This document shows positions 1-62,532 of a DNA stretch of 64,000 nt, piece after piece. Position 1 is the first letter of the stretch. Every line of letters begins with the position of its first letter. The position numbers were made by a program, and so were the translations under genes. The stretch spans positions 2,028,806 through 2,092,805 of the forward strand of contig NW_003314271.1 of the NCBI RefSeq assembly GCF_000143415.4, given 5' to 3'. Below the pieces are notes generated by a model. The model was given only the letters and a program-made list of their open reading frames with translations. It made no database searches and was not told the origin of the DNA. The stretch comes from Selaginella moellendorffii (Eukaryota; Plantae; Lycopodiophyta).

Positions 1-128
1 TCCAATAACATGCTGTAACACTTCTAGTATAATGCAAATCCTCTCAAAGAATTGTCTTTTAATATTAATACAATGGCATGGAACCCCATGCCATAATAAG
101 TTACATTTTTAAATAAATACATGCCATC

Positions 129-3100
129 TCAGACTGTTATTTTTTGCCTCCAACGCCTATACAATAATCTTGGAATTTCATCACTCTCCACACTATCAGG
201 ATTTAAACCCAATAGTAATGCCATCTCTTCTCTAATACGTCCACGCTCATGTTCAGTGGTCGAAGAACCCATCCGGTTGAGCAGATTATGGAGATGCGGA
301 TAGTGCTTGGCTAGACAATATACATGCCATAAATGATGACTGGTGTCTGTCCGATCAAATGGCTTTTGATATACCGTTCCATCTGCCATTTGGTTGATTT
401 CTGCACCCACCTCCTGGATTGGCCGGTTCTCTATCACCATCGCTCCAAGCCGTTTTGCAAGGTCCCCCAGAACATACGGTTTCTTCTCCCTAGTTTCCAT
501 ACTGCAAGAGATGGGGTGCATTGCATATGTGTGCATGTTTGCTGCAGTTTTAATCGGCGAGTCATCGATGATGAGGATTTCACTTGACCTAGCAGTCCGG
601 TTCATCACTACAGCCTCTGGCTTGACGAAGATGGGCTTGCTACCCCTCACATGGACCATAGTCAAGCAATCCTCCTACGTTAGGAGAAAGTCAAATGGTA
701 ATATTACTCGCATCTGATCGTGCATCATCTGTAGCAACGTTAATGCATTGTGGCGCATCATGGATGTCCAAACTCCCAATTGCAAATTGAACCCGACCCT
801 CTGTTTTAAGTGTCGCATGGTCATTATTAGATCCCGCAGTTTCTCCCGTGTGATTAATGTGAATCTGTCTCTTTTGACCAACTTGCGACCGCAGGCTTTG
901 GAGGGTGCAGTGACATTCGAGGACGAGCCACGCTCATGGGAGAAAAGGACACCGTTCAGATCAAAAACGATACAGTACCTTCGCCGTGACTCTGAAATGA
1001 AATGCGTCAGCATAAAAAATGGTACAAGTCAATTTTACCATCTACAATATTAGCGAATGGTGCTCCCGATGGTCGTTGAGAGGGTTTTGGTCGAGGAAAC
1101 GTGAAGGGCGGAAATACTCTCCTCTGCAATGTGGGGTCAATCGCATCCGATGGCGTGTGGGCACATGCTATTTCAACTGTAGACTCTGGTACAACTGGCT
1201 CAACAGTGGCATGGGGTGGTTCCGATGGCGTGTGATCACACGCCATTTCAGCTGATGCCTCCGTTGGCAAAGTGGACATGACCGAACAGGCAGCAGGGGC
1301 GGTGTAGGGAGGTTCCAACGGCACGTAGTCAGACGATTGGGCACACGTTGAGTCCGTTGGAAATGAGGATACGACTGGCTCGGCGGCTGGGGCGGCCTCA
1401 TGCGGGTCCAATGGCGCCTGGTCACCGTCAGTTGGATACGTGGACAAGATTGACTCAGTGGTATGGGCAGCATCAAGTGGAGCGTGGTCAGCTTGCTTGG
1501 CGTTGATATGGATAGTAGCCTCCACCAGCTCTGATGACTCTTGCAGGCAAGTAGAGTCCACTGGCGGATCTATATGCATGTCCAAATATCTCCCTTCGAT
1601 TGAGATGGTATCCTCCCTACTGGCTACTAAAAACAAACTCATTAGCACATTGAATCAACTATACTGTATTTACCATCAACTGCTATTGAGGAACTAGGAC
1701 CGATATCACTTGGGCGCACTGCTGATTCTGAAGGATTGGACATACGTTTCGACCCTTGCTTGGCACTATCCTTCCTCGACACTAAAGGCTAGAGTTTGTA
1801 TCTTAATTCAACTGAATAATCTCTACTTACCATTTGCTCTGCGACCTACATGGACAATGTTAGAAATAGTAAAAGGTTAGGAATGGATGTACTATTATTT
1901 ACCTGATGGTTTGTCTTGTATGACCTTCCTCCGCTGCTCTTTGGCCACCTCAGGCTGGCCATCGTTGTCATCATCGTCGTCGTCGTTATTGTGATCGTCA
2001 CCATTGTGAGGACCATCTAAGTCCTCTTCGTCCTCCTCTTCTTCGTCCTCCTCCTCTTTGTCCTCCTCTTCGTCCTTCTGCTCTTCTTGCTCATTATCTT
2101 TCTCTGGCTCCTCATCCCCCTCCTGCATTTCTTCCATAGGCTGCTCAGGCTGGATGGCTTGTTCTTCCAGGACCATCTTGGGAAAATCATCTGGCCGAGT
2201 CTCCATCTCAAAATACAAGACATCCATAGCCTGTTTTAGTGCGTGACCTAGGACTGTATCCTCACGCGACTGTCTTAACATGGTTTTTGCACGTTCTTGC
2301 ACCCTTCGAAGATGACGAGATGAGAAAAATGTGGCCCTGACTTGAAAAGCATCCCTCATCCATTCCATTGAGATTGGGGAAGGGGAGTCCGCCATAGGAA
2401 TCTGAGTCAGGAGGTGGTGACTGGCTGCTTTCACTCAGCCCTTGATCTGCAATGAATGGCATGAGCACACACGCCATAACCGCGAGGCATTACCTATCAT
2501 CTTTTCGTTGCCCTTCTTCCTTTTCGAATCAAACGCCTTTGATCCCGACGACTGTCCAACGTGCTTTCACTTTTTATGACCACTGTCAGTTTGAGCTTGG
2601 CTGGTGCTTGCCTGTTTTGCCTTTGAAGAAGTGTCTCCTGCAAGGAATGGCATGAGACCACACGCCATTGCAAATATAATTTGTACCTCCTTTTTTCCTA
2701 TTGCTTGTCTGTTTGTCCTTCTTTGACGCGCCACCAGTGCGCTTTTCAGTCCTCGTGTCTGAATATTCACAACGATCTATAATCAAAATGGCGTGAGGCC
2801 TCATGTGACCTTACCTTGTGCAGGTTGTGAGCTCGGCCCAACATGGGTATCTTCAACAGTAGCTGTTAACGCCGTTTCAGCATCTAGGGGTGGCCACGCT
2901 CCTGCATACAGAGCTTGTGAGATAACATTTAAACTTAAAGTGCGTACTCACCAGGTTCGCAGAGAAGATACTGTTTTTCTTTGGCAACTGTAATTATATG
3001 CTCCATTGAAGTCACTTCTTCAATGGAGTTTGTCACCGCAACACACAGGACACCCTTGAGTAGTGCGGCTCGAAAGAATAGTCCGCCGCAGTTGTACTCG

Positions 3101-5750
3101 ACAACGCATTTGCCCTTGGAGTCGGAAGCAGGTGACCCACCCGCTATTGCGTTGAAGACCCAGCTGAGCATTTCCCATGCTGCACCTGGAGCTTTCTCTG
3201 GATTCGAAAGCTCCATAGCCGTCTTCAGTTCCTCAGGCATGGGTAAATTGACCTCCCTCAGATCAATTCGATCGGCCTTGTCGAACGAAGCTGGGAAGTC
3301 ACTCCAGTCCCACTCTGCTGCAGGACCAATAACAAGGGTGAGTGTGAAGATGCGGACATTCGTCGGTACCTTCTTCTTAGCCATTATCCCATGGATCTCC
3401 TGCATCTCCTTGCCTTTCAACCGAGCCTTCACCTCGTTCAAGGCCTTCCAGAACTTGTGATAGGATTCGGAGTCGTAGATCATATAGCGGACTGAAGATT
3501 CCACCTCCGCAAGTCCCACTATTAAGTCAATGATGGAGCTGACTTCGTCTGCATGAGTGATCTCCTCGTTTGTGAAGTCCATCACACAAAAGATGTTCTT
3601 GACCTGCTCATCTCCGCGGGAAACGATGCTCCTCCACCTTTGATCCTCATCCGAATTCACGTATACCTGGTAAGGTTCTCGATAGGCCTCTGCTGCGGGG
3701 TCGAGCTGTTTCTGAAGCCGGCGGTCGACATCCCTCTTAATGAAATTTGGATACTGATCCAACTTCTCAGCTTTACTTTTCGTGGCATCCCGCAGCAGAT
3801 CGATGAACTTGGGGGCCCCCTTCACGTACTCGTCGATGTCTTCATTTGACAACTCCAGCTCTTCCATCATCTCTTGCATGGTGTCGATGCTCACCCTCTC
3901 CATGGCCACTTGCTCGAAGATCCAATCCTTCAATAGCGCATGAGCTCTCAGAGTCGTGCACAAGTCCTCGTATGTCACAATATGGCCGGGAGTCATTTTG
4001 GTGTTGTTGAAGACTACCTCACCACATAGAAGAGCATTAGCCACTGTCAGAAGGTCGTCGTCGTCTAGAGACCGCGAGAAACGCAAGGCGTTGAGCTTCA
4101 AATCATTGGGCTTCCGGCCGTCCTCCACACCCATTGAGTTTAGCAACTCCCCGTCATGGTACCTCCTCAGCACATCTACCCATTTGTCAAAAATAACTTT
4201 TGTCGCGAGTAGAATGTTATGGATGCTGAGTGTGTCATTGACCCCCAGTGTTTTCGAGAGAAGACTCGAGAATTCCTGCAATGGAAATGGCGTGAGGCCA
4301 CATGCTATGCCACATGCAACGAGGCTTACCTGCCAGGCGCTAGTTGCTAGTGCACGTCCTTGTCCTGGTTTTTGTGGCTTCTTCAGTTGAACCCAGAGCT
4401 TCCGTGTTCGTGCCAATGTCTCGTGCAGACCCGATTTGTAGCACGTTTCTTGCTTGACATTCTGCGCGTGGGAGATGGATATGATAGATCAGAGGGGCGA
4501 GTTGCCTTTTATCAGGCGGACAACTCTTGTCTTGAAGACTTTCTTCACCTCCTCGCCCACCATAATATCCACAACTATCTGTTGCATCGCCAAGCTAGAA
4601 TGCTGCCCGGAGACGACATAGAACTGGATGTTCTGATCGTCCAACACCTTCCTATTGATCAAGTCTGGAAACCTCGTCTCGCCCTTCATTGTTCGGTAGT
4701 AGGGGATCACGTCTGCGATGTCGGGTGTTACTGGACTTGCCAGCATCTTCTGCTTCAGTTTCTCCACCCACTCATCAGATACTAGCCTGTGGTTGTATTT
4801 TCTTTGGATCTTGATACGGCTCACGTCGATTGTATATACTTTGTTGGAATAGTAACAAGTACTATTATCTGCAACGATTTTTGCTGCCTCTTCTTGCTCT
4901 TTCTGCTCTTTGCGGCTCTTCTTTTTGGTGGGTGTAGTGTTCGAACCCGAGGCAATGGCATCACCGAGTAGCTTCTTTTTTGGAGCAGCAGAGTCGGACG
5001 TCAGCTTGAGCTTGACCACCCTTTTCTGCTTCGGGGTAGTTTCCAGATCGACCCCCTTCCCCTTTGCTTCGCAAACTGGAGGCACTCTCAACGGCTCAAT
5101 GTTGGAATATAGTTTTTGAACATCACCGTAGGTGAGGTCCGTGGATTCCATGTGATCTTCATAGACCCGCAGCGTCTTTGAAATTGTGGGCCTCCTGGAC
5201 AACCTCTCCCTAGCTCCCTCTAGGAATTCCTCATAGCCGCTGCCCCCCTCCGGGAAGCCGCTAGGATGTGCAAGGTGGATCTTGAAGGCGGACGCTGTCT
5301 CTACCACAAGTGCCAGTGCATATTCTTGCATGGAACTGCATGGAGTGTCTGTCACTTGGATGAGGATCCCCATGCATTCTTTTCTCCCACCATCTGTGTT
5401 GTACAGCCTCAGATCCTCGCTTTCCATCCCGAAAGTCCAACTGGTGAGCTCCTCCCCCTTCTCTGCATCCACATTGATAGTGGCTGGAAGAAGAACGCAA
5501 TTCCTCGCCTGTTCAGAAATGCACAACAATTATAGCTGACAGATGAAAAGCTAGCAGCTGGAAATAACGTGAGGCCACACGCCATTCACCACTGCATCAG
5601 ATGTCTTGAGGCTGCATCCTAAGATGGCGTGAAGCTACACGCCATCTGTAACCAGACTGCACTCGAGAGCCCAATCGGTGCATGCCAATGTTGCTACTGA
5701 ATGGCATGTGGCCTCATGCCATTTTCTACTTGGCCTAAAAGACTTACCAT
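129..5750 (-). pseudogene. Spliced cargo gene, copy 1: ParB/Srx-like + degenerate amino-MTase fold + low-complexity linker + FCP1/NIF-type HAD phosphatase
   Basis: Inverted twin of 50926-56505. Motifs: FYVVSGQHS (ParB-like), GKCVVEYNCGG..AALLKG (MTase motif I-like), IVFDLNGVL..WTS..IIDDSPIK (HAD). Lesions: TGA at 4489-4491, an 8-bp deletion near 2365, TAG at 675-677. Confidence 0.75.
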
Positions 5751-7993
5751 TTGAAGCCGAATGGAGGCGTGACAATCGAGGCCAGACTCGCTGGCAAATG
5801 TGCACTGTGTGTGCAGCGGATCGTAGCAGCAAGGCTACTCTGCCACTTACAGTTGGAGAGTGGCGCTGAAATCTCCCGGGACGCCAAGTGGGCTGCTTGT
5901 GGGTGGCGGAGTGGGCGGCGCAGTTGGCGGCGAAGTTACAAACTGGGTGTGTCTTGAAGTGGACACCGATGCACACGAGAAACCTGTAGAGAAGGTAGAT
6001 GAGCGCAAATGTGAGCGTGATCGCGAGTGGGAGCGCGATGCAAGCTCGAGTGTGCGAGCGCGAGTACGATGCAAAACCTAACCTCACACGCGCGAAATGT
6101 CACGACGGTTGGTAATCCCGCCACGTCATCATTCCTCGGACTTGGGCACCACCATTAATTTCTGGATCGCCGCGCGCATGCATGCACGTGAAATCCAAAA
6201 GAAATCCGCAACGTCATCATTCCTCGGACTGCATGCACGCGAAATCCAAAAGAAAGATCATGATTGGGATATCATTTAATACCCTCGCTATATTTATACC
6301 ATGCATGATTGGATATTCCAAAGCATCTTGTATTTCCAAAAATGCCAGATGTTCAGCTAAATAAAGAATGGTATACAATGTCCTTCTTGATGACCCTACA
6401 AAGAAGCATCTTGATCGGACACCACATGAGACCACACGAGCCTTACAATGTTTCAGGGGCATTTGCCATAGATCCGACCGTTATTTTGCTCCAAGATTCT
6501 ACAGTTTGGTGTGCATTGACCTTTCCATCGACATTGCAAAGGGACATCACAATCAGATGCGGGATCACAAGAAACTAACTTCACTAACTCTGGTTTCACC
6601 AAGATCTACGTAAGGAGTTATGAAATGAAAGGACCCTCTCTATTGAAATGTGTTTATGGTCCTAGGGGCATTGTGACATATTAAAGGATTTTGCATCAAG
6701 TTCTGTATTTGCATGTTTATCAAGCTACTGAATTGCTAAACCCTAAACCCTAAACATGTGGCAAATGCTGCATGAAGAAAGATGCCCTTTCTGGGCAAAT
6801 GCTGTAAGAGGCAGATGCCGAGCAGATGTATCTCAGGCTAGCGAAGGGGACAAACGAAAGCTAGCTATAAACATGACGGGATGCAAATAGATTACTAGGC
6901 TGGTCCTGCGAAAATCAAAAACCATAATTGAAAACATTGAAAATGCAAAAAGAAAGGTTTATAATATTTTTGAATTTTAAGCAACCAAAGGAATGTAAGT
7001 AGGGCATGTGTTTGTAAGTTTAAAAATGCCTCAACCACTTAAATTCCCAAGTAAATAAAGCTGTTTCTATTTTTGGTACAGGTAAACTTTATAGCGTGTG
7101 GGCTCATGCAATTTTGAACCCAAAAATGCACCAAAAAATGCTCGACTAGCATTATTCTTTGAATGGCGTGTGGCCTTATATTGCCATAAATGGACGTACA
7201 CACACAGCATAATTATTCCTTTACACGGTGAATAATCTTGGCGCGGATCGCTGACATGGCATGGCAAAGTTCGAATCACTGACATGGCACAGCTGGATCG
7301 AGGCAAGGACATGATGTGACAAAGTTCAACCTCTGACAGCAAAGTCTAGAAGCTACTCAGTTTGAAATTTGTCAGAGGAATCATAAGATCTGGTTTGTCA
7401 GAGGATTTGATGTGACGTTCAAGCGTGTGTTATTTTTGAATTCTTGAACTCATTCCTAGGTCTATCATTTTTGTGCGCTGTGTTCTTGGTTCCACTGAGC
7501 GCAGTGAGCGCTGCTTGTGTAAGCGGCGTTGTGAGCTGTGGTTTATGCGTCTATGAGCGGTTGCGGCATTGCGAGCGCCATTGCGAGCGGCAGTTTATGC
7601 GAGTGGCAGTTTGTGCGAGCGGCGCTACGAGTAGTTGCGGTGTTGCGAGCGGCACTGTCTTTGGTGTGGCTACCGCTTCCTCTTGATATTCGGCACTTGT
7701 GCTTCCTGGTATGTTCACCATGGAATGGCTTAGGACCACATTTAGAAATGGCATGAGGCCACATGCCATTAGTGGTACCACTAATGGCATGAGGGCTCAT
7801 GCCAATAGTGGTACCACTAATGGCATGAGGGCTCATGCCAATTTTGTGAATGCGAAATTTCACGTGGGTGTCAATAGCATGTTTGAATAATGGCATGTGG
7901 CCTCATGCTATTGAGGTTGTTTGGTATGTTATGATTTAGGTCATTCTCCAATCATTTTTTGTATGGTCTTAACTTCTTTTCTGCACTTTCAGA

Positions 7994-10634
7994 ATGGCCT
8001 CCGCAAGTGCGACGCATGTTCCCTCCGTGGATCTTAAGAACCGTGCTACATGGATTCAGGCAAAGGTGTTTCTAAACAACCCCGAGGGGGAGGTGGTAGC
8101 TGAGGGCTTAGCCACAGTTGTCGATCCAAGAGATGCGGTTGCTAATCAAGAATTGGGCTGGGATGATATTGGAGTTGCAATTTTAGAGGTTGTTGACACA
8201 GAAGAAAATAGTCTGACTATTGGAAGCATTGTGCGGTGGAAATTGAGGCACTTAGTGTTTGAGAATGTGAAGGATTCACAATTAAACACCACTACAACTG
8301 ATGACAGAACATCTCTTCATGGGAAAAGAAAGTACACCTTCCTAAAGCGCAGCCAAAGGGATCTGAGCAACGAACCGAAAAGGCAGAAAATGGCGATGGA
8401 GGTTTGAATGGTCTCGACAGTTGCTTGTTGCAAGAGGAGGTGCTGTCAACATGCTGATTGGGATGCTATTGAAGAGGAGAGAGCAAGATACAAGACATTG
8501 TCCTGGAAGGCAGCTCGCAATTTTGTGTATGAGGCATTACGGTCATCTGTTGATGCTTGAGAACATCAGGTGGGGGGCATGGTCTTCCAGAGGGGTTTGG
8601 TCTGCATGAAGGCATGGAGAATCATTTATGGAGTCCCTCAAACCACATTCTACAGAATCAAAACTGAGTTTGAGGAACAAAGGGTTCAACAGGCAGTCCA
8701 TGGGAACGACGGTACTCACAAAACCAGGGGTCATGTTGTATATGGAGAGGCAATCTTCAAGAGGTTTGTCGAGACATGTAGCGAGCAGCAACCACATAAA
8801 ACCCGCCTCTTGGAAGATGGAACTCGAGACACCCAACGAGTTCTCCCTTCCATGTATACCAAGGGGGCCATATTGGAAGATGTGAATCGGGAACTCTAGA
8901 GTAATGGCTACAGGAAGCTGAGCCAATCTAGATTTAGTAGATTGTGGAGCAACAGGTTCAGGGATGTGAGTATAGGAAAGTACTCCAGCTTTTCAAAGTG
9001 TGACGAGTGCACTGCTATCAAAATGGCTTTGTCGAAGAATTCTTGCATCGCTCAAGAGCGAGAGACGTTGGTGTAAGGAACCAACTCGCCGAGGTGTCGT
9101 AGGCTAAAGGAACCCCGAAAGCATGACCAAAATGACAAAGACTTCATCGGATGGGACCAAGTCAAAGATAGAGTCTGGAATCGAGTCCGAGACCGACTCT
9201 AGGACCGAGTTCGAGATAGAGTCCGGAATCGAGTCCGAGACCGACTCGGGGACCGAGTTCGAGTCCGAGTTCGAGACCAAGTTCGAGACGGAGTCCGAGA
9301 TCCGAAATCGGGTCCAAGACCGAGTCCGAAATCGAGTCCGAGGTCGGGCCCGAGATCGGGTCCGAGATCGAGTCCGCGATCGAGTCCGAGACCGAATCCG
9401 AAGTCGGATCCGAAATCGGATCCGAGATCGAGCCAGAGACTAAGTCCAAATACTAATACGGGTCAAGGGGTGAAAGCCCAAAGCGTGCGTCCCCCAGGGG
9501 GGGGGGGGGGGCTGCAGGGGGTTCCAAAAGTATAGTAGGGATAGTGAGGCCCAGGAACCAGTTTTGAAGGGACTCTCCAGTTGGGCTTCCAAACCGACTT
9601 GAGGTTGAGACTAGGACCGAGGGGCCTTGGGTGGGAGTGAGCATGGACTTGGCTGGTGCCGGAGGGGCCATCCAAGGAAGTGCTCAAGAGCAGCTCCCAC
9701 TCCCGAAAGGGAAACCAATTGCGGTGCTCCCGGCTCATGTGGAGTGGTGCCCCACTTGAGTACCATGCGACTCATTGGTCCTCACCCTTCCTAAGGGCTT
9801 GGGCCTTCCTTCGGGATGGAAGTGGGGGGCGAGAGGTACCCATACCGGGCCGCTAGGCCACGGTGTTTCGCCTCGACGTCCCGAAGCAAGTGTTGCACTC
9901 AAGACTTGGGATTTAGAGGGTCCCATGATCAAGTCTTGTGGTACCAAGGGATGTTAGGCACCTGGAAGCTTGGTGTGCTTGGCTGCTTGTGCTTGCGGGG
10001 AGTGTAGCCGAACCTTAGTCCAGTCTAACCCGGGGAGGGGGATTGGGAGTGATTTGGGAATCTGTGGAAGGATGGCTAACACTCCGTTGTTCGTGCAGTG
10101 AGTAGCTGAAACCAAGTAGGAGCTGGTACCATAGGCGAGAACCTTGGCAAGGGAACTTAGCAAAAGCCAAGGCAGTGTTGGACGGATAGACGAGGTAAGC
10201 TGGCAAATTGGAAAAGAAAAATTTGTGGCTTACAGTTGGTTAGAAGGCGGCTCGACCACAACATTGAGCAGAGAAGCTGCAGGACTGCATATTATTATAA
10301 CAGGATTCTCTCCATGGAGAGACCTAACTCTTACCTCTGCATCATCCACGACAAAATGGACCAGAAAAAGACGTGCTTACCTCGACTCAATCCTGCCCCC
10401 AAGGCAATCTCTTCATCCATGCAGCTGCCTGTGTCTCTGTTTGGCATAATCGCTCATGGGCATGGTGCCCAGAACTATGGGAACTTCTTTGTACCTCTAT
10501 GGGGTGGCGGGGGTGCAAACATGATGATTGCGTCCCTAGCAAAACACTTAAGGTCTCTGCAAAGTGCGCAGACTGAGCTGAACGGCCAACCCTTGCATAA
10601 GGCCCTTGTCGATCGAACCCCATACAGGTTCTAG
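7994..10634 (+). pseudogene. DUF7869/Sola-like DDD-type transposase, interrupted by a solo LTR and 3'-truncated
   Basis: One frame from 7994 to 9071 with three stops, each explicable by C>T (8405, 8558, 8897). Contains CCKRRCC, VCMKAW..YG, HGN and FSRLW..FSKCDEC. Removing the LTR plus one TSD rejoins ERETL-VRRRLDH in frame to IIHDKMDQKKT..HGHG. The expected DN..NKN and GHT..D motifs are absent. Confidence 0.75.
9072..10234 (+). mobile_element. Solo LTR of chromovirus family A
   Basis: TGTAAGG...GCTTACA with 5-bp TSD GTTGG (9067-9071, 10235-10239). Homologous to the LTRs at 15746, 20259, 36440 and 57288. Confidence 0.95.
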
Positions 10635-11169
10635 CAAATCTTACTTAAAGTTCAAGGTGAACAAGCCGAATATGAATTCATCGGATTGTTATAACAAATT
10701 GCGAGGTGATGGCATGAGGTGATACGCCATTTGAGAGTGGTAGCCATTCCTATATGAGGTGAGTGAAATATTTATTAGAAATACCTCATTCAATTGTGCA
10801 CTTCTAAGTCTTGGTCCACTCAATACTAAAATGTTATTTAGCATGTGGCTTCATGCCATTGCTCTCCACAATCATGCATTGAATTTTTCTATCCTTGCAT
10901 AATACTTCTCCATATATATAGCATGTGCGCACATGTGATATGGTTCATTAGGCCTAATATAGTGTGTGAGGTAAAACAAAGATGATGTGACATATGCATT
11001 TACCAATCACACGATAAATCTAATAATATGGCGTGTGGCCCATATTAATGGCACATAAACCCATATTGTGGGCTTACGTGCTTTATGTACCATCATTCCC
11101 TTGCAGCGTGTGTGTTGGTTTCCTTTTATAACACAACGAACTCCATATTTTAGGGTGAAGAGCGTTCTC

Positions 11170-11427
11170 ATGGCAAGCACAAAATCTGTAAGTGAGGCAG
11201 AAAAGGAGACGGAGAAGGAGATAGGTGAAGATGTAGAATATATAAGTCTTCCAAACTCCCCGTACTATACTCCAGGTGATCATTTTTCTGAACAAACGGC
11301 AACATTAACAACTATCGAGAACGCCCCAGTAACGTCAGAGACAACAATCCAAAGCAAAACAACTGACCTGGAGAAGGATGATAGTACCGCTGAGAGTACC
11401 AAAAAGGAGGTGTCCACTAGCGCTTAG
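11170..11427 (+). CDS. Small (85 aa) S/T/E-rich element-encoded protein of unknown function
   Basis: Shares SLPxSxYYTPG, NAPVTSETTIQSK and DSTAEST with ORF 61030-61278. Confidence 0.55.
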   Translation: MASTKSVSEAEKETEKEIGEDVEYISLPNSPYYTPGDHFSEQTATLTTIENAPVTSETTIQSKTTDLEKDDSTAESTKKEVSTSA

Positions 11428-12087
11428 GCTTATAATGGCGTGTGCCCTCATGCCATTTACTTGATCACCAAATACCTTTTTCCCTTTGCACTAGTATATC
11501 TTAATACCGGTCTGAGAAATAGAATGGCATGTGCCCTCAGGCCTTTTACTAAATCACCTTTGAAAGAAATGCAAGCCTCTATGTCGTAAAAAAAAGGTAC
11601 TAGAGAAATTCCTTAATAATATGAATGTTATTTAGTTTCATGAAAATACACTAAGGGTCAAATGAGTTAAATGACTTCTCCAGACTAGCAATGCCTCTTG
11701 CTACACCTTCACAATTAGATTCGTTAGAAAAAGATAACATTGAATAATATCTAAATGTTCTCACCATTAAGTTATATGTCTGGCTAATAGGAATGACATT
11801 CATCTTGGAAAGCTCACCACACGCTCAATGAACAAACAAATAGTGTGTGCGCGCATGCCATCGCTCTTCTTTAGCTTCAGATTCGGCTTGTTCACCTTGA
11901 CAATGAGATTTATTATACAACCAGATGGACTCAGTCTGGACACAAAGTCACTGCACTAGTCACCATGCCCCAGATATGTCTAGCTCCTGGACAAAAAACA
12001 TATAATTTCACGTCATTTTCAAATACTTGAAAATTTGTACCTAGTCCCATTTTACTGAATAAATCCCACTTTAACGAAATAGAGCTT

Positions 12088-48525: not shown

Positions 48526-49298
48526 AAGCTCTATTTCGTTAAAGTGGGATTTATTCAGTAAAATGGGACTAGGTACAAATTTTCAAGTATTTGAAAATGA
48601 CGTGAAATTATATGTTTTTTGTCCAGGGGCTAGATATATCTGGGGCATGGTGACTAGTGCGGTGACTTTATGTCCAGACTGAGTCCATCTGGTTGTATAA
48701 TAAATCTCATTGTCAAGGTGAACAAGCCGAATCTGAAGCTAAAGAAGAGCGATGGCATGCGCGCACACACTATTTGTTTGTTCATTGAGCGTGTGGTGAG
48801 CTTTCCAAGATGAACGTCATTCCTATTAGCCAGACATATAACTTAATGGTGAGAACATTTAGATATTATTGTGAAGGTGTAGCAAGAGGCATTGCTAGTC
48901 TGGAGAAGTCATTTAACTCATTTGACCCTTAGTGTATTTTCATGAAACTAAATAACATTCATATTATTAAGGAATTTCTCTAGTACCTTTTTTTTACGAC
49001 ATAGAGGCTTGCATTTCTTTCAAAGGTGATTTAGTAAAAGGCCTGAGGGCACATGCCATTCTATTTCTCAGACCGGTATTAAGATATACTAGTGCAAAGG
49101 GAAAAAGGTATTTGGTGATCAAGTAAATGGCATGAGGGCACACGCCATTATAAGCCTAAGCGCTAGTGGACACCTCCTTTTTGGTACTCTCAGCGGTACT
49201 ATCATCCTTCTCCAGCCTGAGATACATCTGCTCGGCATCTGCCTCTTACAGCATTTGCCCAGAAAGGGCATCTTTCTTCACGCAGCATTTGCCACATG

Positions 49299-49331
49299 TT
49301 TAGGGTTTAGGGTTTAGGGTTTAGGGTTTAG
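49299..49331 (+). repeat. (TTTAGGG)4+ tract inside the DNA transposon
   Basis: Four full units plus TTTAG. Copy 1 has two units plus a partial at 6736-6755. Confidence 0.9.
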
Positions 49332-50925
49332 CAATTTAGTAGCTTGATAAACATGCAAATACAGAACTTGATGCAAAATCCTTTGATATGTCACAATGTC
49401 CCTAGGACCATAAACACATTTCAATAGAGAGGGTCCTTTCATTTCATAACTCCTTACGTAGATCTTGGTAAAACCAGAGTTAGTGAAGTTAGTTTCTTGT
49501 GATCCCACATCTGATTGTGATGTCCCTTTGCAGTGTCGATGGAAAGGTCAATGCACACTAAACTGTAAAATCTTGGAGAAAAATAACGGTCGGATCTATG
49601 GCAAATGCCCCTGAAACATTGTAAGGCTCGTGTGGTCTCATGTGGTGTCCGATCGAGATGCTTCTTTGCAGAGTCATCAAGAAAGACATTGTATAACATT
49701 CTGTAAAATCTAGTTGCGATCTAACGGTTGGATCTCCAGAAAACTCAAAAAAATCTCGCGCGTGTCAGAATATTCTAGGAATATACTCCTATGTGCCCCT
49801 GAAAATGGCATGCGGCCCCACGCCATTCAAGAGATAACGCCAGATGACGCCGAGAATTTTTTGGTGCATTTTTTGGGTTCAAAATTGCATGAGCCCACAC
49901 GCTATAAAGTTTATCTTTGCCAAATAGAGAAAAGTTTATCTGTGTCGTGTGAGGTAGTTACAGTCCTTTGTGCTCGCCATCTGCCTCTTGCAGCATTTGC
50001 ACTGAAAGGGAATTTTTCTCCATTCAGCATTTGGCCCTGAAAATGGCATGCGCCCACACGCCATTCAAGGAATAACGCCATAGGACGCCTGGATTTTTGG
50101 GTTTAAAATGTTTAGGGTTTTTTGGGTTTTTTCAAAATATTTTGGGTCCAACGTTTTTTGGGTTTCTTTGGTTCAAAATTGCATGAGCCCACACGCTATA
50201 ATATTGATTTGAGAGAAAAATAGAAACAGATAGAATTTCTTTATTTAGCTGAACATCTGCCATTTTTGGAAATACAAGATGCTTTGGAATATCCAATCAT
50301 GCATGGTATAAATATAGCGAGGGTATTAAATGATATCCCAATCATGATCTTTCTTTTGGATTTCGCGTGCATGCAGTCCGAGGAATGATGACGTTGCGGA
50401 TTTCTTTTGGATTTTGCGTGCTTGCATGCGCGCGGCAATCCAGAAATTAATGGTGGCGCCCAAGTCCGAGGAATGATGACGTGGCGGGATTACCAACCGT
50501 TGTGACATTTCGCGCGTGTGAGGTTAGGTTTTGCATTTTGCTTCGTACTCGCGCTCGCGCTCGCATCACACTCGCGCTCGCATCGCGCTCCCACTCGCGA
50601 TCACGCTCACATTCGCGCTCATCTACCTTCTCTACAGGTTTCTCGTGTGCATCGGCGTCCACTCGCGCTTGCATCACACTCGCGCTCGTATCGCGCTCGT
50701 GTGCATCGGCGTCCACTTCAAGACACACCCAGTTTGTAACTTCGCCGCCAACTCCGCCGCCCACTCCGCCACCCACACGCAGCCCACTTGGCGTCCCGGG
50801 AGATTTCAGCGCCACTCTCCAACTGTAAGTGGCAGAGTAGCCTTGCTGCTACGATCCGCTGCACATACAGTGCACATTCGCCAGCGAGTCCGGCCTCGAT
50901 TGTCACGGCCTCCATTCGGCTTCAA

Positions 50926-53900
50926 ATGGTAAGTCTTTTAGGCCAAGTAGAAAATGGCATGAGGCCACATGCCATTCAGTAGCAACATTGGCATGCACCG
51001 ATTGGGCTCTCGAGTGCAGTCCGGTTACAGATGGCGTGTAGCCTCACGCCATCTTAGGATGCAGCCTCAAGACATCTGATGCAGTGGTGAATGGCGTGTG
51101 GCCTCACGTTATTTCCAGCTGCTAGCTTTTCATCTGTCAGCTCTAATTGTTGTGCATTTCTGAACAGGCGAGGAATTGCGTTCTTCTTCCAGCCACTGTC
51201 AATGTGGATGCAGAGAAGGGGGAGGAGCTCACCAGTTGGACTTTCGGGATGGAAGGCGAGGATCTGAGGCTGTACAACACAGATGGTGGGAGAAAAGAAT
51301 GCATGGGGATCCTCATCCAAGTGAAAGACACTCCATGCAGTTCCATGCAAGAATATGGACTGGCACTTGTGGTAGAGACAGCGTCCGCCTTCAATATCCA
51401 CCTTGCACATCCTAGCGGCTTCCCGGAGGGGGGCAGCGGCTATGAGGAATTCCTAGAGGGAGCTAGGGAGAGGTTGTCCAGGAGGCCCACAATTTCAAAG
51501 ACGCTGCGGGTCTATGAAGATCACATGGAATCCACGGACCTCACCTACGGCGATGTTCAAAAACTATATTCCAACATTGAGCCGTTGAGAGTGCCTCCAG
51601 TTTGCGAAGCGAAGGGGAAGGGGGTCGATTTGGAAACTACCCCGAAGCAGAAAAGGGTGGTCAAGCTCAAGCCGACGTCCGACTCTGCTGCTCCAAAAAA
51701 GAAGCTACTCGGTGATGCCATTGCCTCGGGTTCGAACACTACACCCACCAAAAAGAAGAGCCGCAAAGAGCAGAAAGAGCAAGAAGAGGCAGCAAAAATC
51801 GTTGCAGATAATAGTACTTGTTACTATTCCAACAAAGTATATACAATCGACGTGAGCCGTATCGAGATCCAAAGCAAATACAACCACAGGCTAGTATCTG
51901 ATGAGTGGGTGGAGAAACTGAAGCAGAAGATGCTGGCAAGTCCAGTAACACCCGACATCGCAGACGTGATCCCCTACTATCGAACAATGAAGGGCGAGAC
52001 GAGGTTTCCAGACTTGATCAATAGGAAGGTGTTGGACGATCAGAACATCCGGTTCTATGCCGTCTCCAGGCAGCATTCTAGCTTGGCGATGCAACAGATA
52101 GTTGTGGATATTATGGTGGGCGAGGAGGTGAAGAAAGTCTTCAAGACAAGAGTTGTCCGCCTGATAAAAGGCAACTCGCCCCTCCGATCTATCATATACA
52201 TCTCCCACGCGCAGAATGTCAAGCAAGAAACGTGCTACAAATCGGGTCTGCACGAGACATTGGCACGAACACGGAAGCTCTGGGTTCAACTGAAGAAGCC
52301 ACAAAAACCAGGACAAGGACGTGCACTAGCAACTAGCGCCTGGCAGGTAAGCCTCGTTGCATGTGGCATAGCATGTGGCCTCACGCCATTTCCATTGCAG
52401 GAATTCTCGAGTCTTCTCTCGAAAACACTGGGGGTCAATGACACACTCAGCATCCATAACATTCTACTCACGACAAAAGTTGTTTTTGACAAATGGGTAG
52501 ATGTGCTGAGGAGGTACCATGACGGGGAGTTGCTAAACTCAATGGGTGTGGAGGACGGCCGGAAGCCCAATGATTTGAAGCTCAACGCCTTGCGTTTCTC
52601 GCGGTCTCTAGACGACGACGACCTTCTGACAGTGGCTAATGCTCTTCTACGTGGTGAGGTAGTTTTCAACAAGACCAAAATGACTCCCGGCCATATTGTG
52701 ACATACGAGGACTTGTGCACGACTCTGAGAGCTCGTGCGCTATTGAGGGATTGGATCTTCGAGCAAGTGGCCGTGGAGAGGGTGAGCATCGACACCACGC
52801 AAGAGATGATGGAAGAGCTGGAGTTGTCAAATGAAGACATTGACGAGTACGTGAAGGGGGCCCCCAAGTTCATCGATCTGCTGCGGGATGCCACGAAAAG
52901 TAAAGCTGAGAAGTTGGATCAGTATCCAAATTTCATTAAGAGGGATGTCCACCGCCGGCTTCAGAAACAGCTCGACCCCGCAGCAGAGGCCTATCGAGAA
53001 CCTTACCGGGTATACGTGAATTCGGATGAGGATTAAAGGTGGAGGAGCATCGTTTCCCGCGGAGATGAGCAGGTCAAGAACATCTTTTGTGTGATGGACT
53101 TCACAAACGAGGAGATCACTCATGCAGACGAAGTCAGCTCCATCATTGACTTAATGGTGGGACTTGCGGAGGTGGAATCTTCAGTCCACTATATGATCTA
53201 CGACTCCGAATCCTATCACAAGTTCTGGAAGGCCTTGAACGAGGTGAAGGCTCGGTTGAAAGGCAAGGAGATGCAGGAGATCCATGGGATAATGGCTAAG
53301 AAGAAGATACCAACGAATGTCTGCATCTTCACACTCGCCCTTGTTATTGGTCCTGCAGCAGAGTGGGACTGGAGTGACTTCCCAGCTTCGTTCAACAAGG
53401 CCGATCGAATTGATCTGAGGGAGGTCAATTTACCCGTGCCTGAGGAACTGAAGACGGCTATGGAGCTTTCGAATCCAGAGAAAGCTCCAGGTGCAGCATG
53501 GGAAATGCTCAGCTGGGTCTTCAACGCAATAGCACCTGCTTCCGACTCCAAGGGCAAATGCATTGTCGAGTACAACTGCGGCGGACTATTCTTTTGAGCC
53601 GCACTACTCAAGGGTGTCCTGTGTGTTGCGGTGACAAACTCCATTGAAGAGGTGACTTCAATGAAGCATATAATTACAGTTGCCAAAGAAAAACAGTATC
53701 TTCTCTGCAAACCTGGTGAGGACGCACTTTAAGTTTAAATGTTATCTCACAAGCTCTGTATGTAGGAGCGTGGCCACCCCCAGATGCTAAAACGGCGTTA
53801 ACAGCTACTGTTGGGCCGAGCTCACAACCTGCACAAGGTAAGGTCACGTGAGGCCTCACGCCATTTTGATTATAGATCGTTGTGAATATTCAGACACGAG

Positions 53901-56505
53901 GACTGAAAAGCGCACTGGTGGCGCGTCGAAGAAGGACAAACAGACAAGCAATAGGAAAAAAGGAGGTACAAATTATATTTGCAATGGCGTGTGGTCTCAT
54001 GCCATTCCTTGTAGGAGACACTTCTTCAAAGGCAAAACAGGCAAGCACAAGCCAAGCTCAAACTGACAGTGGTCATAAAAAGCGAAAGCACGTTGGACAG
54101 TCGTCGGGATCAGAGGTGTTTGATTCGAAAAGGAAGAAGGGCAACGAAAAGATGATAGGTAATGCCTCGCGGTTATGGCGTGTGTGCTCATGCCATTCAT
54201 TGCAGATCAAGGGCTGAGTGAAAGGAGCCAGTCACCACCTTCTGACTCAGATTCCTATGGCGGACTCCCCTTCCCCAATCTCAATGGAGAGGTACAATGG
54301 ATGAGGGATGCTTTTCAAGTCAGGGCCACGTTTTTCTCATCTCGTCGTCTTCGAAGGGTGCAAGAACGTGCAGAAACCATGTTAAGACAGTCGGGTGAGG
54401 ATACGGTCCTAGGTCAAGCACTAAAACAGGCTATGGATGTCTTGTATTTTGAGATGGAGACTCGGCCAGATGATTTTCCCAAGATGGTCCTGGAAAAACA
54501 AGCCATCCAGCCTGAGCAGCCTATGGAAGAAATGCAGGAGGGGGATGAGGAGCTAGAGAAAGATAATGAGCAGGAAGAGCAGAAGGACGAAGAGGAGGAC
54601 AAAGAAGAGGAGGACGAAGAAGAGGAGGACGAAGAGGACTTGGATGGTCCTCACAATGGTGACGATCACAATAACGACGACGACGATGATGACGACGATG
54701 GCTAGCTTGAGGTGGCCAAAGAGCAGTGGAGGAAGGTCATACAAGACAAACCATCAGGTAAATAATAGTACATCCATTCCTAACCTTTTACCATTTCTAA
54801 CATTGTCCATGTAGGTTGCAGAAGAAATGGTAAGTAGAGATTATTCAGTTGAATTAAGATACAAACTCTAGCCTTTAGTGTCGAGGAAGGATAGTGCCAA
54901 GCAAGGGTCGAAACGTATGTCCAATCCTTCAGAATCAGCAGTGCGCCCAATAGCAGTTGATGGTAAGTACAGTATAGTCGATTCAATGTGCTAATGAGTT
55001 TGTTTTTAGTAGCCAGTAGGGAGGATACCATCTCAATCGAAGGGAGATATTTGGACATGCATATGGATCCGCCAGTGGACTCTACTTGCCTGCAAGAGTC
55101 ATCAGAGCTGGTGGAGGCTACTATCCATATCAACGCCAAGCAAGCTGACCACGCTCCACTTGATGCTGCCCATACCACTGAGTCAATCTTGTCCATGTAT
55201 CCAACTGACGGTGACCAGGCGCCATTGGACCCGCATGAGGCCGCCCCAGCCGCCGAGCCGGTCGTATCCTCATTTCCAACGGACTCAACGTGTGCCCAAT
55301 CGTCTGACTACGCGCCGTTGGAACCACCCTACACCGCCCCTGCTGCCTGTTCGGTCATGTCCACTTTGCCAACGGAGGCACCAGCTGAAATGGCGTGTGA
55401 TCACACGCCATCGGAACCACCCCATGCCACTGTTGAGCCAGTTGTACCAGAGTCTACAGCTGAAATGGCATGTGCCCACACGCTATCGGATGCGATTGAC
55501 CCCACATTGCAGAGGAGAGTATTTCCGCCCTTCGTTTCCTCGACCAAAACCCTCTCAACGACCATCGGGAGCACCATTCGCTAATATTGTAGATGGTAAA
55601 ATTGACTTGTACCATTTTTTATGCTGACGCATTTCATTTCAGAGTCACGGCGAAAGTACTGTATCGTTTTTGATCTGAACGGTGTCCTTTTCTCCCATGA
55701 GCGTGGCTCGTCCTTGAATGTCACTGCACCCTCCAAAGCCTGCGGTCGCAAGTTGGTCAAAAGAGACAGATTCACATTAATCACACGAGAGAAACTGCGG
55801 GATCTAATAATGACCATGCGACACTTAAAACAGAGGGCCGAGTTCAATTTGCAATTGGGAGTTTGGACATCCATGATGCGCCACAATGCATTAACGTTGC
55901 TACAGATGATGCACGATCAGACGCGAGTAATATTACCATTTGACTTTCACCTAACGCAGGAGGATTGCTTGACTATGGTCCATGTGAGGGGTAGCAAGCC
56001 CATCTTCATCAAGCCAGAGGCTGTAGCGATGAACCGGACTGCTAGGTCAAGTGAAATCCTCATCATCGATGACTCGCCGATTAAAATTGCAGCGAACACG
56101 CACACATATGCAGTGCACCCCATCTTTTGCAGTATGGAAACTAGGGAGAAGAAACCGTATGTTCTGGGGGACCTTGCAAAACGGCTTGAAGCGATGGTGA
56201 TAGAGAACCGGCCAGTCCAGGAGGTGACTGCAGAAATCAACCAAATGGCAGATGGAACAGTATATCAGAAGCCATTTGATCGGACAGACACCAGTCATCA
56301 TTTATGGCATGTATATTGTCTAGCCAAGCACTATCCGCATCTCCATAATCTGCTCAACCGGATGGGTTCTTCGACCACTGAACGTGAGCGTGGACGTATT
56401 AGAGAAGAGATGGCATTTCTATTGGGTTTAAATCCTGATAGTGTGGAGAGTGATGAAATTCCAAGATTATTGTATAGGCGTTGGAGGCAAAAAATAACAG
56501 TCTGA
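50926..56505 (+). pseudogene. Spliced cargo gene, copy 2: ParB/Srx-like, degenerate amino-MTase, linker, FCP1/NIF HAD phosphatase (~1,600 aa, 11 exons)
   Basis: GT-AG introns 50929-51167, 52347-52400, 53716-53765, 53838-53893, 53966-54014, 54159-54205, 54758-54814, 54830-54878, 54963-55009 and 55596-55642 give phase-consistent joins. Lesions: stops at 53034, 53595 and 54703, and a 2-bp deletion near 55533. Confidence 0.78.
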
Positions 56506-57287
56506 GATGGCATGTATTTATTTAAAAATGTAACTTATTATGGCATGGGGTTCCATGCCATTGTATTAATATTAAAAGACAATTCTTTGAGAGGATTTGC
56601 ATTATACTAGAAGTGTTACAGCATGTTATTGTAAGTCTACAAAGTTGTTTTATTAATAAGGGGAAAGTAAAGATTGAATGGGGACTTGGGCTCCACCTAG
56701 ACTCGGAGCAACTGAGCCAATATTAAAAAAGGATGGAAAGAAATTGGACGACGATGACAAGGAGAAGAGAGAGGTGAAGTAGTGGCAGGGGGAGGAGAAG
56801 TGATTGAGTAGACATTTCCTTGTTTAAAATAAAATGGCATGTGCCTCAATGCAGTTGAATTTTGTTATATTTATATACTATATAAAGGTTTGGAAACCTT
56901 ATTTTACAAGTGGGATAATGACAATTCCCACTTTAACGAAATAGAGCTTATCTGCAGTCTTTTGTTTTTTCTTCCACTTCTCTTAATGCTTTAGCTTGCG
57001 TATGAGAGTCTCTAGCAAGGCATTGGTCTGTGCCAACTGTCCTTCTAGAACGTCCAATCGAGCCTTGGACAACCGAACCTCACCACCGGACTCCTGTTTA
57101 GAAGTTTCCTCATTGAAGTCCTCCTCATGCAAGGATTCCTCATCCATAGCCTATTGTTCGACCGGAGGCTCTAGTTCTAGAGGAGGTTTTGTCTCTGCCT
57201 TGGTTCGTTTACGCCCTCCCTTCGCCATCTCCTAGCAATTCGCCTTTATCTTTTGCTAGAACTGAAGAAAAATCTCCAATACCAAAT

Positions 57288-59084
57288 TGTAAGCCACAAA
57301 TTTTTCCTTCCCAATTTGCCAGCTTACCATGTCTATTCGACCAACACTGTCTTGGCCTTAGTTAGTTTCCCTTGCCAAGGTTCCTGCCTATTGTACCAGC
57401 TCCTACTTGATCCTACTTAGTTTCAACTACTCACTGCATGAGCAATGGAGTGTTAGCCATCCATCCACAGATACCCAAATCTCTCCCAATCCCCCTCCCC
57501 GGGTTAGACTGAACTTAAGGTTCGACTACACTCCCCATAGGCATAAGCAGCCAAGCACACCAAGCCTCCAGGTTCCTAACATCCTTTGGTATAACAAGAC
57601 TTGATCATGGGACCCTCTAAATCCCAAGCCTTGTGTAGCACACCTTATCTCTCTCCCCTTAAACCAACTGGAAAAGGGGCAATTGTTTGATGAGAGAGCC
57701 CTTAGTGGCTATTTTATCCCCATTTATCCCCCAAGGTTCCAAGGATCCACGGTGACAGTATATCCAAATTTCATTCCATGATCACATGCGCTGCACTCAC
57801 CCCCTCTTTAAAGATGTCAATGTCCTCATTGACTATTAGCTAACAACCCTTATTGAGCCAAGAGGAACGAGCACTTCCATTTTCGCACTAAATCTACCAA
57901 TCCTTCCATTGTGTAGATCAGCTATTCCATGTGAGGCAACTAGTCATCCACCCATACCGCAGTCCCACGGTGGATACCTTCGTCCGTGGATACTCCACAC
58001 AAGAGGAAGGACGTATGCATGGATGCCCAATACGTATGATTTCAAATTTAGGGCTAGGAATATACCTTGCTCAAGGGTATATTATGTTTTTAAATAGCCA
58101 CTAATCAATGGGAATTGAACCCGTGCCATTTACTCTGATACTACATGTAGTGCACTTTATCTCTCTCCCCTTAAACCAATTAGAAAAGGGGCAATTACTT
58201 GATGAGAGAGCATTTAGTGGCTATTTTATCCCCATTTATCCCCCAACGTTCCAAGGATCCACGGTGACAGTATATCCAAATCTCATCCCATGATCACATA
58301 TGTTAGACCTTGGGTGCAATACCTACTTCGTGACGTTGGGGGGGGGGGGAGGGGGGACACTGTGGCCTAATACCCCCCCCTCTTCCATCCCAAAGGGAGG
58401 GCCCAAGCCCCTAGGAAGGGCGAGGATTAATAAGCTGCAAGGTACTCAAGTGGGGCACCACTCCACATGAGCTGGGAGCACCACAGTCGGTTTCCCTTCC
58501 GGGAGTGGGAGTTACTTTTGAGCATTTCCTTGGGTGGCCCGTCTGACACCATGCTCACTCCCACCCAAGGCCCCTTGGCCCTAGTCTCAACCTCAAGTCA
58601 GTTTGGAAGCACCACTGGAGAGTTCTTTCAAGACTGGTTCTTGGACCTCATTATCCCTACTATACTTTTGGAAACCCCCTACAGCTCCCCCCCCCCAAGG
58701 AGACACACGCTTTGGGCTTTCACCCTCAACTTGTATTAGTACTCGGTCTTGGACTTGGACTTGATCTCAGACTCGACCTCGGACTCAATTTCAGACTCGA
58801 TCTTGGACTCGACCTCGAACCTGATCTAGGACTCGACCTCGGACTCGACCTTGGACTCGGTCTCGGACCCGATCTTAGATCTCGGACTCTGTCTCAAACT
58901 CAGTCTTTGAACTCGGTCTCGAACTCGGCCTCAAACTCGATTCGGACTCTATCTCAAACTCGGTCTCTAAGTCAGTGTTGGACTCAATCTCCGACTTGGT
59001 CCCATTCGATGAATTCTTTATCATTTCGGTTTTGCTTTTGGGGATCCTTTAGCCTACGACACCTCGGGGAGTGGGTTCCTTACA
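57288..59084 (-). mobile_element. 5' LTR of A2, containing a TRIM
   Basis: TGTAAGCC...CCTTACA, preceded by a PBS-like CTCCAATACCA. Confidence 0.9.
57634..58307 (-). mobile_element. TRIM family D, complete
   Basis: Two ~160-bp LTRs, PBS, PPT and TSD CCTTG (57629-57633, 58308-58312). Confidence 0.9.
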
Positions 59085-61029: not shown

Positions 61030-61278
61030 ATGGGAAGCAAGGAAGAAGACAAAAAATCTGTAAGTAGTTCTAGCATACAGAAATGTGAGAATGTGAATTT
61101 TGTTTCACTACCACAATCTCTATATTACACGCCTGGTCCTTATTACCCATTCGGGAATGTGGAGACCACTATCACTATTGATAAAAATGCTCCTGTTACT
61201 TCCGAAACAACAATCCAGAGCAAGAGAAAAGAAGAAATGGACAGCACAGCGGAAAGCACTAATAAATCCACTCTATAA
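61030..61278 (+). CDS. Small (82 aa) protein homologous to 11170-11427
   Basis: VSLPQSLYYTPG, NAPVTSETTIQSK and DSTAEST are shared. Confidence 0.6.
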   Translation: MGSKEEDKKSVSSSSIQKCENVNFVSLPQSLYYTPGPYYPFGNVETTITIDKNAPVTSETTIQSKRKEEMDSTAESTNKSTL

Positions 61279-62274: not shown

Positions 62275-62532
62275 AAGTCATGCATAGTTTTTTCAAAAGG
62301 TTAATTCTTTATGAGTAAAGTGGAGAATCTTATATTTTTGAGAATGATATTATTCTAGCATGTATAAAGATATTATTATATATACAAGTGGTTCTGACAC
62401 TGTTATAATTCTGAAGTCCCATTTTTGAGACTGACAATTTAAACTTTCAAGAACCCCTAGATCTTTTCTTAGTATAAATACCAACAAGGGATGCTTTCAA
62501 CATTGAAATTTCAGTTTGTTTAGAGTGTAGGA

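Follow-up and report, generated by a model that had tools for sequence, protein, structure and literature searches.

A family-specific palindrome dispersed through a Sola-type transposon of Selaginella moellendorffii and its possible recognition by a ParB-fold passenger protein

Two copies of the element and their palindromes

The stretch analyzed here (the window) comprises 64,000 bp of the Selaginella moellendorffii genome (RefSeq assembly GCF_000143415.4, contig NW_003314271.1, positions 2,028,806 to 2,092,805) and contains two copies of a large DNA transposon, through which the spaced palindrome ATGGCRTG-N6-CAYGCCAT is dispersed. Copy 1 occupies positions 1–12087, its left end lying about 315 bp before the window. 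Copy 2 (48526–56949, 8.4 kb) is inverted relative to copy 1; the identity between the two is 95.8%, with values of 94–96% over three blocks. Perfect 24-bp terminal inverted repeats (TIRs; 48526–48549 and 56926–56949) bound copy 2, and the right TIR of copy 1 (12064–12087, minus strand) is identical to both of them. Copy 2 is a deletion derivative that lacks the transposase and has kept the passenger (cargo) gene. Its target-site duplication (TSD) is the 4-bp ATCT, as set by an empty homologous site near 15417; a TA target duplication of the Tc1/mariner kind is ruled out by the same empty site. The transposase deletion of copy 2 is joined at an imperfect microhomology of about 10 nt (49206–49215, compared with 6847 and 11368). 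An intergenic segment of about 530 bp (49706–50236) is missing from copy 1, and its start is matched by a loose contig end in another sequencing run. Both copies lack part of the full element, whose length is approximately 13–14 kb. The family has a very high abundance, with 83,985 contigs from a single sequencing run mapping to copy 1 and all of its 30 bins covered; this figure is not a copy number.

The palindromic motif is real and non-random. It occurs exactly 17 times in the window, eight times in copy 1 and nine times in copy 2, with 0.00 occurrences expected (none matched in 100 shuffles). With up to two mismatches the number rises to 35, of which 19 lie in 73–11861 and 16 in 48752–56561, compared with 0.03 expected by shuffling; with up to three, copy 2 holds 18. 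The original prediction of about 20 sites in copy 1 and a matching set in copy 2, with extra ones at 49805, 50043 and 50178, agrees with these counts, and the segment missing from copy 1 holds a fourth site at 49884. Confinement to the element was also confirmed, since the 43,489 bp of the window outside both copies contain no palindrome with two or fewer mismatches. A lone look-alike with three mismatches is located at 37831. The viral contigs searched contain no match to the motif.

When spacers of 0–20 bp were scanned, all 17 exact palindromes had a spacer of 6 bp; with one mismatch allowed, 25 had this spacer and two a spacer of 20 bp. The fixed length had been predicted correctly, whereas the view that the spacer sequence varies has to be qualified, as it is constrained. 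In the half-sites (46 in 23 sites), A or T occupies position 9 in 40 cases, G position 10 in 41 and G or C position 11 in 40, and the consensus over these sites extends to aATGGCRTGWG-SS-CWCAYGCCATt. The palindrome is 20–22 bp long and present in multiple copies in cis, and the only degenerate position of its arm is a CpG. At 12 of 13 aligned sites the purine/pyrimidine (R/Y) state is the same in both copies; these states are therefore features of the family and not recent decay. Other genomic copies carry the consensus base at the degenerate positions 1169 and 5633 (among the 40 of 274 differences listed). Single half-sites were seen in copy 1 at 7163 and 11028, and the half-site shows no resemblance to the TIR when the sequences are compared. 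The flanks are mostly unrelated, as had been claimed (median identity 0.30 over 210 pairs), except that four of the 210 pairs are local duplications (7748/7784/7820 and 1150/1225). Individual palindromes have no TSD, likewise in agreement with the initial description, and the ATCT duplication belongs to the element itself. The strict spacing, the independent half-sites, the missing TSDs and the unrelated flanks support a site for a dimeric protein rather than a miniature inverted-repeat transposable element (MITE), as was originally proposed.

By its TIRs and its 4-bp TSD, and probably by its DUF7869 transposase, the element is a Sola-type DNA transposon. The transposase reading frame (7994–10628, plus strand) contains stops, is split by a solo long terminal repeat (LTR) and is cut off at about 10628, a loose end beyond which the open reading frame (ORF) continues in other copies. 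The solo LTR (9072–10234, TSD GTTGG) is free of palindromes and is skipped by contigs of four sequencing runs. Identity of the window transposase to the homologue P0002 is 97%, and to four further homologues, two of them full-length DUF7869 proteins, 38–41%. The full-length homologues combine DUF7869 with three aspartate motifs, read by eye, of which the window copy retains only the first. These motifs would link the enzyme to Sola. The prokaryote genomes searched contain no relative of the transposase, and profiles of the transposase and of its helix-turn-helix (HTH)-like region retrieved nothing significant from PDB sequences. DUF7869 is named in no paper found by our literature search. For Sola elements, the available part of PMC10741241 gives TIRs of 11–1124 bp, a 4-bp TSD and a DDD enzyme. 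The perfect 24-bp TIR lies within this range, and the TSD is of this length, as it is in two relatives discussed below (L053 and L065).

The passenger gene and the placement of the sites

The passenger gene lies on the strand opposite the transposase, so that the two are divergent. In copy 2 (50926–54750, plus strand) seven exons are predicted, with a frame of 1109 codons containing three stops. Keeping any one of five of the six predicted GT-AG introns of copy 2 results in 8–59 stops. The sixth intron keeps the reading frame, and its WQ|EF junction is that of the RefSeq model XP_024528744.1, a homologue from S. moellendorffii. In copy 1 the gene is on the minus strand. The exon at 4330–5508 contains a predicted ParB/sulfiredoxin (Srx)-fold domain (approximately 4330–4920; 51756–52346 in copy 2) with the motif SGQHS, and the exon at 2951–4275 contains a helical region and a methyltransferase-like region without DPPY (homologue P0008/P0020 of S. 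moellendorffii). Homologues of the passenger were taken from a HMMER search with 13 matches, of which P0007, P0012 and P0019 were set aside as spurious repeats; word-index searches with the passenger protein gave no match.

The ParB/Srx fold of the passenger is a prediction from modeling. The fold model of the 197-aa domain has a predicted local distance difference test score (pLDDT) of 77. Its top VIA matches are PadC (Z 8.8, root-mean-square deviation 3.0, 97 aligned), ParB-N (8.3) and KorB (8.2), with sulfiredoxin also matched, and the top eight rows are all ParB/Srx-fold proteins. Among the rows are SerK, SbnI and Atu1540, which we take to be members of this family. The top Foldseek rows are Noc/ParB, the best with an E-value of 1.3e-3 and the others weaker. 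Sequence identity of the domain to bacterial ParB-fold structures is 8–14%, and searches with a ParB profile gave nothing significant in PDB sequences, no match in PHROGs and no relative in viral contigs. ParB proteins that act as CTP clamps carry the arginine patch GxxRxxA. According to its sequence the passenger is without this CTP-binding patch and has SGQHS in its place; the position reads GQHS or GQHT in copy 1 and in seven of seven homologues, and RQHS in copy 2. No ATPase family that might provide a partner was found in a scan of 18 window ORFs.

The C-terminal half of the passenger looks in sequence like a permuted N4/N6 methyltransferase without DPPY. The lead was an Atlas score of 0.88 to an N6_N4_Mtase cluster, and a motif-I-like EYNCGG aligns with the homologues. 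These motifs were read by eye. Pfam gives no methyltransferase match in the passenger, and the fold model of this half is poor (pLDDT 42.6), yields no confirmation and leaves the structure searches uninformative. The methyltransferase-like part is probably dead. In the Atlas the passenger region 51789–53033 scores 0.96–0.97 against fungal DUF3723 clusters, a hint that DUF3723 may be ParB-like; our literature search found no paper containing both DUF3723 and ParB. Further downstream, an ORF for a NIF/FCP1-like phosphatase is located at 129–1028 (minus strand; 55606–56505 in copy 2). The copy-2 ORF matches Pfam PF03031 with an E-value of 5.9e-6, the assignment also being backed by tblastn, and the copy-1 ORF has one in-frame stop. 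Possibly this ORF is the end of the passenger transcript. On the other side of the transposase a small ORF of 85 aa (11170–11427, plus strand) is 58% identical to an ORF of a neighboring element (61087–61266).

On our gene model, coding DNA makes up 61% of the element and holds two of the 21 copy-1 sites found with up to three mismatches (p=1.8e-6). Passenger introns hold seven sites and a coding linker two; four precede the start codon (ATG) of the transposase, a single one lies in the intergenic spacer, and the rest are in 3' regions. The sites are spread along the element, as originally described, but unevenly. The first (73–94) lies in the 3' untranslated region (UTR), just past the stop of the NIF ORF. 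The only sites in coding DNA, 1150 and 1225, form a 75-bp local duplication in a low-complexity linker ORF (1150–1246). Three predicted mini-introns of 47, 49 and 56 or 38 nt (2447–2812, minus strand; splice model on copy 2) contain one palindrome each (2456, 2647, 2788). The predicted 54-nt intron at 4276–4329 (minus strand), that of the WQ|EF junction, where several homologous ORF calls stop, contains the palindrome at 4287. The predicted first intron (5509–5747, minus strand) holds three more (5564, 5624, 5701). A degenerate palindrome at 7091–7112 in the divergent intergenic region, at the promoter shared by both genes, is followed by the half-site at 7163. Upstream of the transposase ATG lie four palindromes at 7748, 7784, 7820 and 7890 (7748–7911), with a tandem unit of 36 bp; judging from GT and AG boundaries, they are probably within a 5' UTR intron. 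Another three (10709, 10838, 10918; 10709–10939) are located between the transposase remnant and the small ORF, followed by the half-site at 11028, and the last three at 11435, directly after the small-ORF stop, 11524 and 11840 (11435–11861).

In the four mini-introns that carry a palindrome, the CTCAY of the second half-site lies 15–17 nt before the acceptor (in one of them, before the nearer of two in-frame acceptors). A passenger mini-intron free of the motif has CTCAC equally far from its acceptor. Hence, it is likely that the palindrome supplies the branch point in the mini-introns.

Palindromes of related transposons

For comparison, the best 80 of 210 loci matching the transposase alignment, 50 of them distinct, were scanned de novo for palindromes with shuffle controls, in which the maxima were 0–1. 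Five other transposase lineages each have their own palindrome of fixed spacing at similar locations. L012 has GTCGGC-N5-GCCGAC six times, namely twice in linker coding DNA, once in a transposase intron, once at the stop codon and twice downstream. In L011 the word is CACGGG-N6-CCCGTG, with ten occurrences located upstream and in introns; the sister L040 uses the half-site CACGGG as well, three times and with a spacer of N4. The transposases of L011 and L040 have near-identical HTH-like segments, and their spacers differ by 2 bp. L005 contains TTGGCCATATGGCCAA six times, and L001–L004 have the common word GCTCAAAC-N4-GTTTGAGC, one to three times per locus. In a large AT-rich land-plant family, whose flanks contain plant genes, TRGTGGCCACYA is found in 32 of 35 representative loci. 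In the 16 loci of this family with a right TIR, the 2 kb just inside this TIR contain 40 sites and the 102 kb beyond it two.

None of the words of the relatives occurs in the window, and the word of the window has, with up to two mismatches, a single distinct occurrence in the 944 kb of related loci. The sequences thus indicate a palindrome design that is clade-wide and a word that is private to each family. Whether related families carry different palindromes was a check suggested in the original prediction, and the outcome is positive. Co-variation with the passenger protein, the second part of this check, is not supported; the words track the transposase tree (20 rows with several long branches, L062 being omitted for its short coverage), and no ParB gene was found in the 80 loci.

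A few details of these loci may be added. A transposase intron at a similar position in L012 (2017–2140) and L053 (about 10450–10650), two distant lineages, contains the respective family palindrome, and the window transposase has no intron at this position. A degenerate site of copy 2 (56834–56855) is about 95 bp inside the TIR, and in the AT-rich family a site is often found 66–89 bp inside the right TIR, which may point to a conserved site position near the end of the element. More arrays of spaced palindromes exist near the AT-rich family (L066:12935–14307, L072:20688–21572, L080:2525–3231 and L060:7576–7846), and in part these may represent variants of its word or come from different elements.

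Candidate readers of the palindrome

We tentatively interpret the palindromes as self-recognition sites of the Sola-type transposon for its own ParB-fold passenger, probably with an anti-silencing function; taken as a whole, this chain falls a little short of an even chance. An element-encoded dimeric protein would read the two half-sites on duplex DNA. The ParB-like passenger, which would mark the DNA of its own element, is slightly more likely than not to be this reader. Binding along the whole element of about 13–14 kb would allow both divergent genes to remain expressible, comparable to the action of VANC on VANDAL elements, through local shielding from host silencing by cytosine methylation. 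Sites would accumulate where they are cost-free, and in introns of about 50 nt the second half-site CTCAY would double as the branch point. Each family would drift to a private word and consequently act on its own copies only. The predicted fold of the passenger, which is shared by ParB, Noc and KorB, proteins that bind palindromes, argues for this protein, as does a half-site unlike the TIR in two families, the window element and the AT-rich family. A bolder version is rather unlikely. It assumes a prokaryote-derived ParB-palindrome self-recognition system with private mini-intron words as branch points, whose reader would tolerate methylated or deaminated CpG, shield the element and leave a dip in decay.

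The pattern of decay is consistent with a protection from methylation. Between copies 1 and 2, C-to-T differences amount to 10 of 617 at distances of up to 50 bp from a site and to 110 of 2795 further off (p=0.003), a reduction by about half near the sites. For CpG transitions the numbers are 3 of 86 and 56 of 538 (p=0.046), a contrast reached by none of 291 circular shifts, which are not independent of each other. Other changes have the same direction at low power (3 of 716 near sites, 20 of 2961 far from them; p=0.6).

Several observations weigh against the passenger as reader and against shielding. The CpG contrast is significant only at 50 bp (p 0.02; 0.08–0.25 at other cut-offs), all non-CpG changes taken together are likewise lower near sites (0.8% versus 1.7%), and the contrast comes from two copies only and could also result from selection on splice sites. 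The helical region downstream of the ParB domain gave a poor fold model and no clear HTH match. In the 80 related loci the ParB profile finds no gene (best E-value 0.22, with raw ORFs, consensus ORFs and stops read through), and most long related loci carry a palindrome despite this negative profile search. In leave-one-out runs the same profile recovered the omitted homologues at E-values of 2e-30 or better, plus most 60-aa fragments. The relatives L053 (10.7 kb) and L065 (6.3 kb) extend from TIR to TIR with matched 4-bp TSDs and have palindromes and no detectable ParB; as old copies, they may be deletion derivatives like copy 2. In five further related loci, L006–L010 (1.9–4.3 kb), no palindrome was detected. 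The flanks of the fetched loci end at 10 kb.

The transposase is a less likely reader, though a real and by far the most serious competitor of the passenger. The corresponding explanation is that it binds the palindromes through its N-terminal cysteine-rich HTH-like region, for self-activation or for assembly of a transposition complex, and that ParB is incidental. This would account for a palindrome type that follows the transposase tree, with one word in L001–L004 and a common half-site in L011 and L040, although any element-borne gene would follow this tree. It would also suit the location of sites in transposase introns (three other lineages) and at the L012 stop codon, as well as the palindromes in TIR-bounded elements in which ParB was not detected; the contigs of L001–L012, however, measure 2–6 kb, so that a passenger upstream is possible. 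Weak HTH matches (E-values 0.11–0.38) were obtained for two of ten members of the N-terminal region, but L011 and L040 differ in spacing with almost the same HTH-like segment. A precedent is described in the available part of a preprint (bioRxiv 10.64898/2026.08.24.746577), according to which the family-specific motifs of Spm TnpA and AtMu1 co-diversify with the lineage and cognate copies are trans-activated, in the case of AtMu1 by the transposase alone. The AtMu1 transposase binds at TIRs, however, whereas the half-site is unrelated to the TIR both here and in the AT-rich family. In the same source, TnpA and AtMu1 binding is confined to termini or TIRs, the TnpA motif is non-palindromic and no ParB is involved, in contrast to the dispersed palindromes and the predicted ParB-fold passenger of the window element.

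Recruitment of a host transcription factor such as a NAC dimer is improbable. In its G/C form the motif includes CGT-N8-ACG, in agreement with the palindromic NAC site CGTN{7-8}ACG given in the accessible part of PMC4081100, but CGT and ACG are both present in just 3 of 23 sites. In addition, the words of the relatives are unrelated, which fits a co-evolving, element-encoded reader better than a single host factor.

It is very improbable that the palindromes work at the RNA level, as hairpins or as splicing signals of short introns, or form DNA cruciforms. Predicted passenger introns do hold 7 of the 21 copy-1 sites, and the regular distance of CTCAY from the 3' splice site in four introns, found in the motif-free intron as well, would agree with a splicing role. 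Many sites, however, lie between genes or in 3' regions. Of four motif introns, two fold better than shuffles (z -2.2 and -1.7) and the other two do not. No compensatory pairing was observed, as Watson-Crick pairs of the R and Y positions occur in only 10 of 22 sites and positions 9 and 14, where mismatches are in excess, are non-complementary in 15 of 19 (p=0.019). The half-sites thus vary independently, which disfavors a hairpin; moreover, a hairpin does not need a fixed 6-nt loop, and there is no Rfam match. The least probable explanation is that the sites have no function and arose through local duplication or from tiny insertions (relics of MITEs or introners), since the few tandemly duplicated sites and an A/T asymmetry at positions 9 and 14, suggestive of descent from a founder word, stand against missing TSDs and unrelated flanks at most sites, an intron around site 4287 that is conserved in distant homologues and hence older than the word, and the same design with different words in five lineages.

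Recognition of the element by its own ParB-fold passenger can be compared with several known systems. VANC motifs are non-palindromic words of 8–9 bp in tandem repeats, carried by Mutator-type elements, and bacterial parS measures 16 bp compared with 20–22 bp here. According to the available part of PMC5735166, VANC21 binds a family-specific motif in intronic, intergenic and terminal non-coding DNA, its sites avoid coding DNA, and local CG methylation is lowered. Similarly, a short family-specific motif is distributed here over non-coding regions of a large element. With a DUF7869 transposase, a 4-bp TSD and a ParB-fold passenger instead of Mutator and VANC homology, the window element is an analogue at most; binding and demethylation are proven for VANC and inferred here. 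ParB/parS, Noc/NBS and KorB/operator (6sdk, 7ol9, 8qa8) likewise unite a ParB/Srx fold with a multi-copy spaced palindrome on the encoding DNA, but in contrast to bacterial ParB/parS the arginine patch is missing and no ParA is among the scanned ORFs. There is no evident reason why a chromosomal transposon should require segregation, and the initial label 'parS-like' therefore holds as an analogy only. We class the palindromes neither with parS segregation systems nor the element with VANDAL.

More direct counterparts come from algae. In Sola1-1_Ec32 from Ectocarpus a gene for a ParB-like plus N4/N6-methyltransferase protein is divergent from the transposase, and the available main text (PMC12477816; figures and supplements are outside this scope) makes no mention of palindromes. 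Both are large Sola elements with a ParB-like domain encoded opposite the transposase; the window element differs by its land-plant host, a methyltransferase-like part without DPPY, the extra NIF phosphatase and mapped sites. In red-algal Plavaka (EnSpm) elements, inverted-repeat arrays lie beside the ParB-like gene PAG3, and self-binding was proposed in the part of the preprint at hand (bioRxiv 10.1101/2025.02.11.637652). A ParB-like accessory gene and inverted repeats within the element are thus shared. In the same source, the PAG3 ParB is fused to a 2-oxoglutarate oxygenase and the repeats are tandem arrays next to the gene, whereas they are dispersed here over introns, UTRs and spacers. 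The Plavaka transposase belongs to another superfamily; ParB is therefore the common term. Literature searches, with subscription papers, Repbase Reports and supplements of the key papers outside their scope, retrieved no account of palindromes in Sola elements.

The pairing of a ParB passenger with its own element has hence already been proposed for algae, as far as the available parts of these two 2025 papers show, and the present locus adds a defined site, a candidate reader and natural variants. New are the land-plant case, the dispersed sites embedded in introns, the family-specific words and a hint from decay. With six words in six transposase lineages, the idea can be tested by cross-family binding. 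If true, it would represent a second, independent sequence-specific anti-silencing route beside VANDAL/VANC, derived from a bacterial fold, which could help to explain the abundance of a 13-kb DNA transposon and provide orthogonal protein-site pairs for plants. If the transposase were the reader instead, it would be a transposase with internal sites unlike its TIRs.

Beyond the two copies, an AT-rich third element occupies 60600–64000. Besides the related small ORF at 61087–61266 it contains paralogous cysteine-rich ORFs (61702–62274 and 62524–63075) and an N6_N4_Mtase-like remnant (63210–63587; Pfam E-value 1.7e-4, below the cut-off) that gives no alignment to the passenger profile. Its visible part has neither the window motif nor a palindrome of its own. 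Outside the element only look-alikes with three to four mismatches are found, in a repeated stretch at 26347, 37831 and 58108 that reads GGGAATCGAACC or a variant thereof. GGGAATCGAACC resembles a reversed tRNA B-box; ARAGORN found no tRNA and Rfam no match. The regions 12088–48525 and 56950–59100 are made up of decayed retroelements of the Gypsy type, nested in one another and rich in related LTRs, and include an assembly gap of 100 N near 36,900 and TTTAGGG repeats near 46,800.

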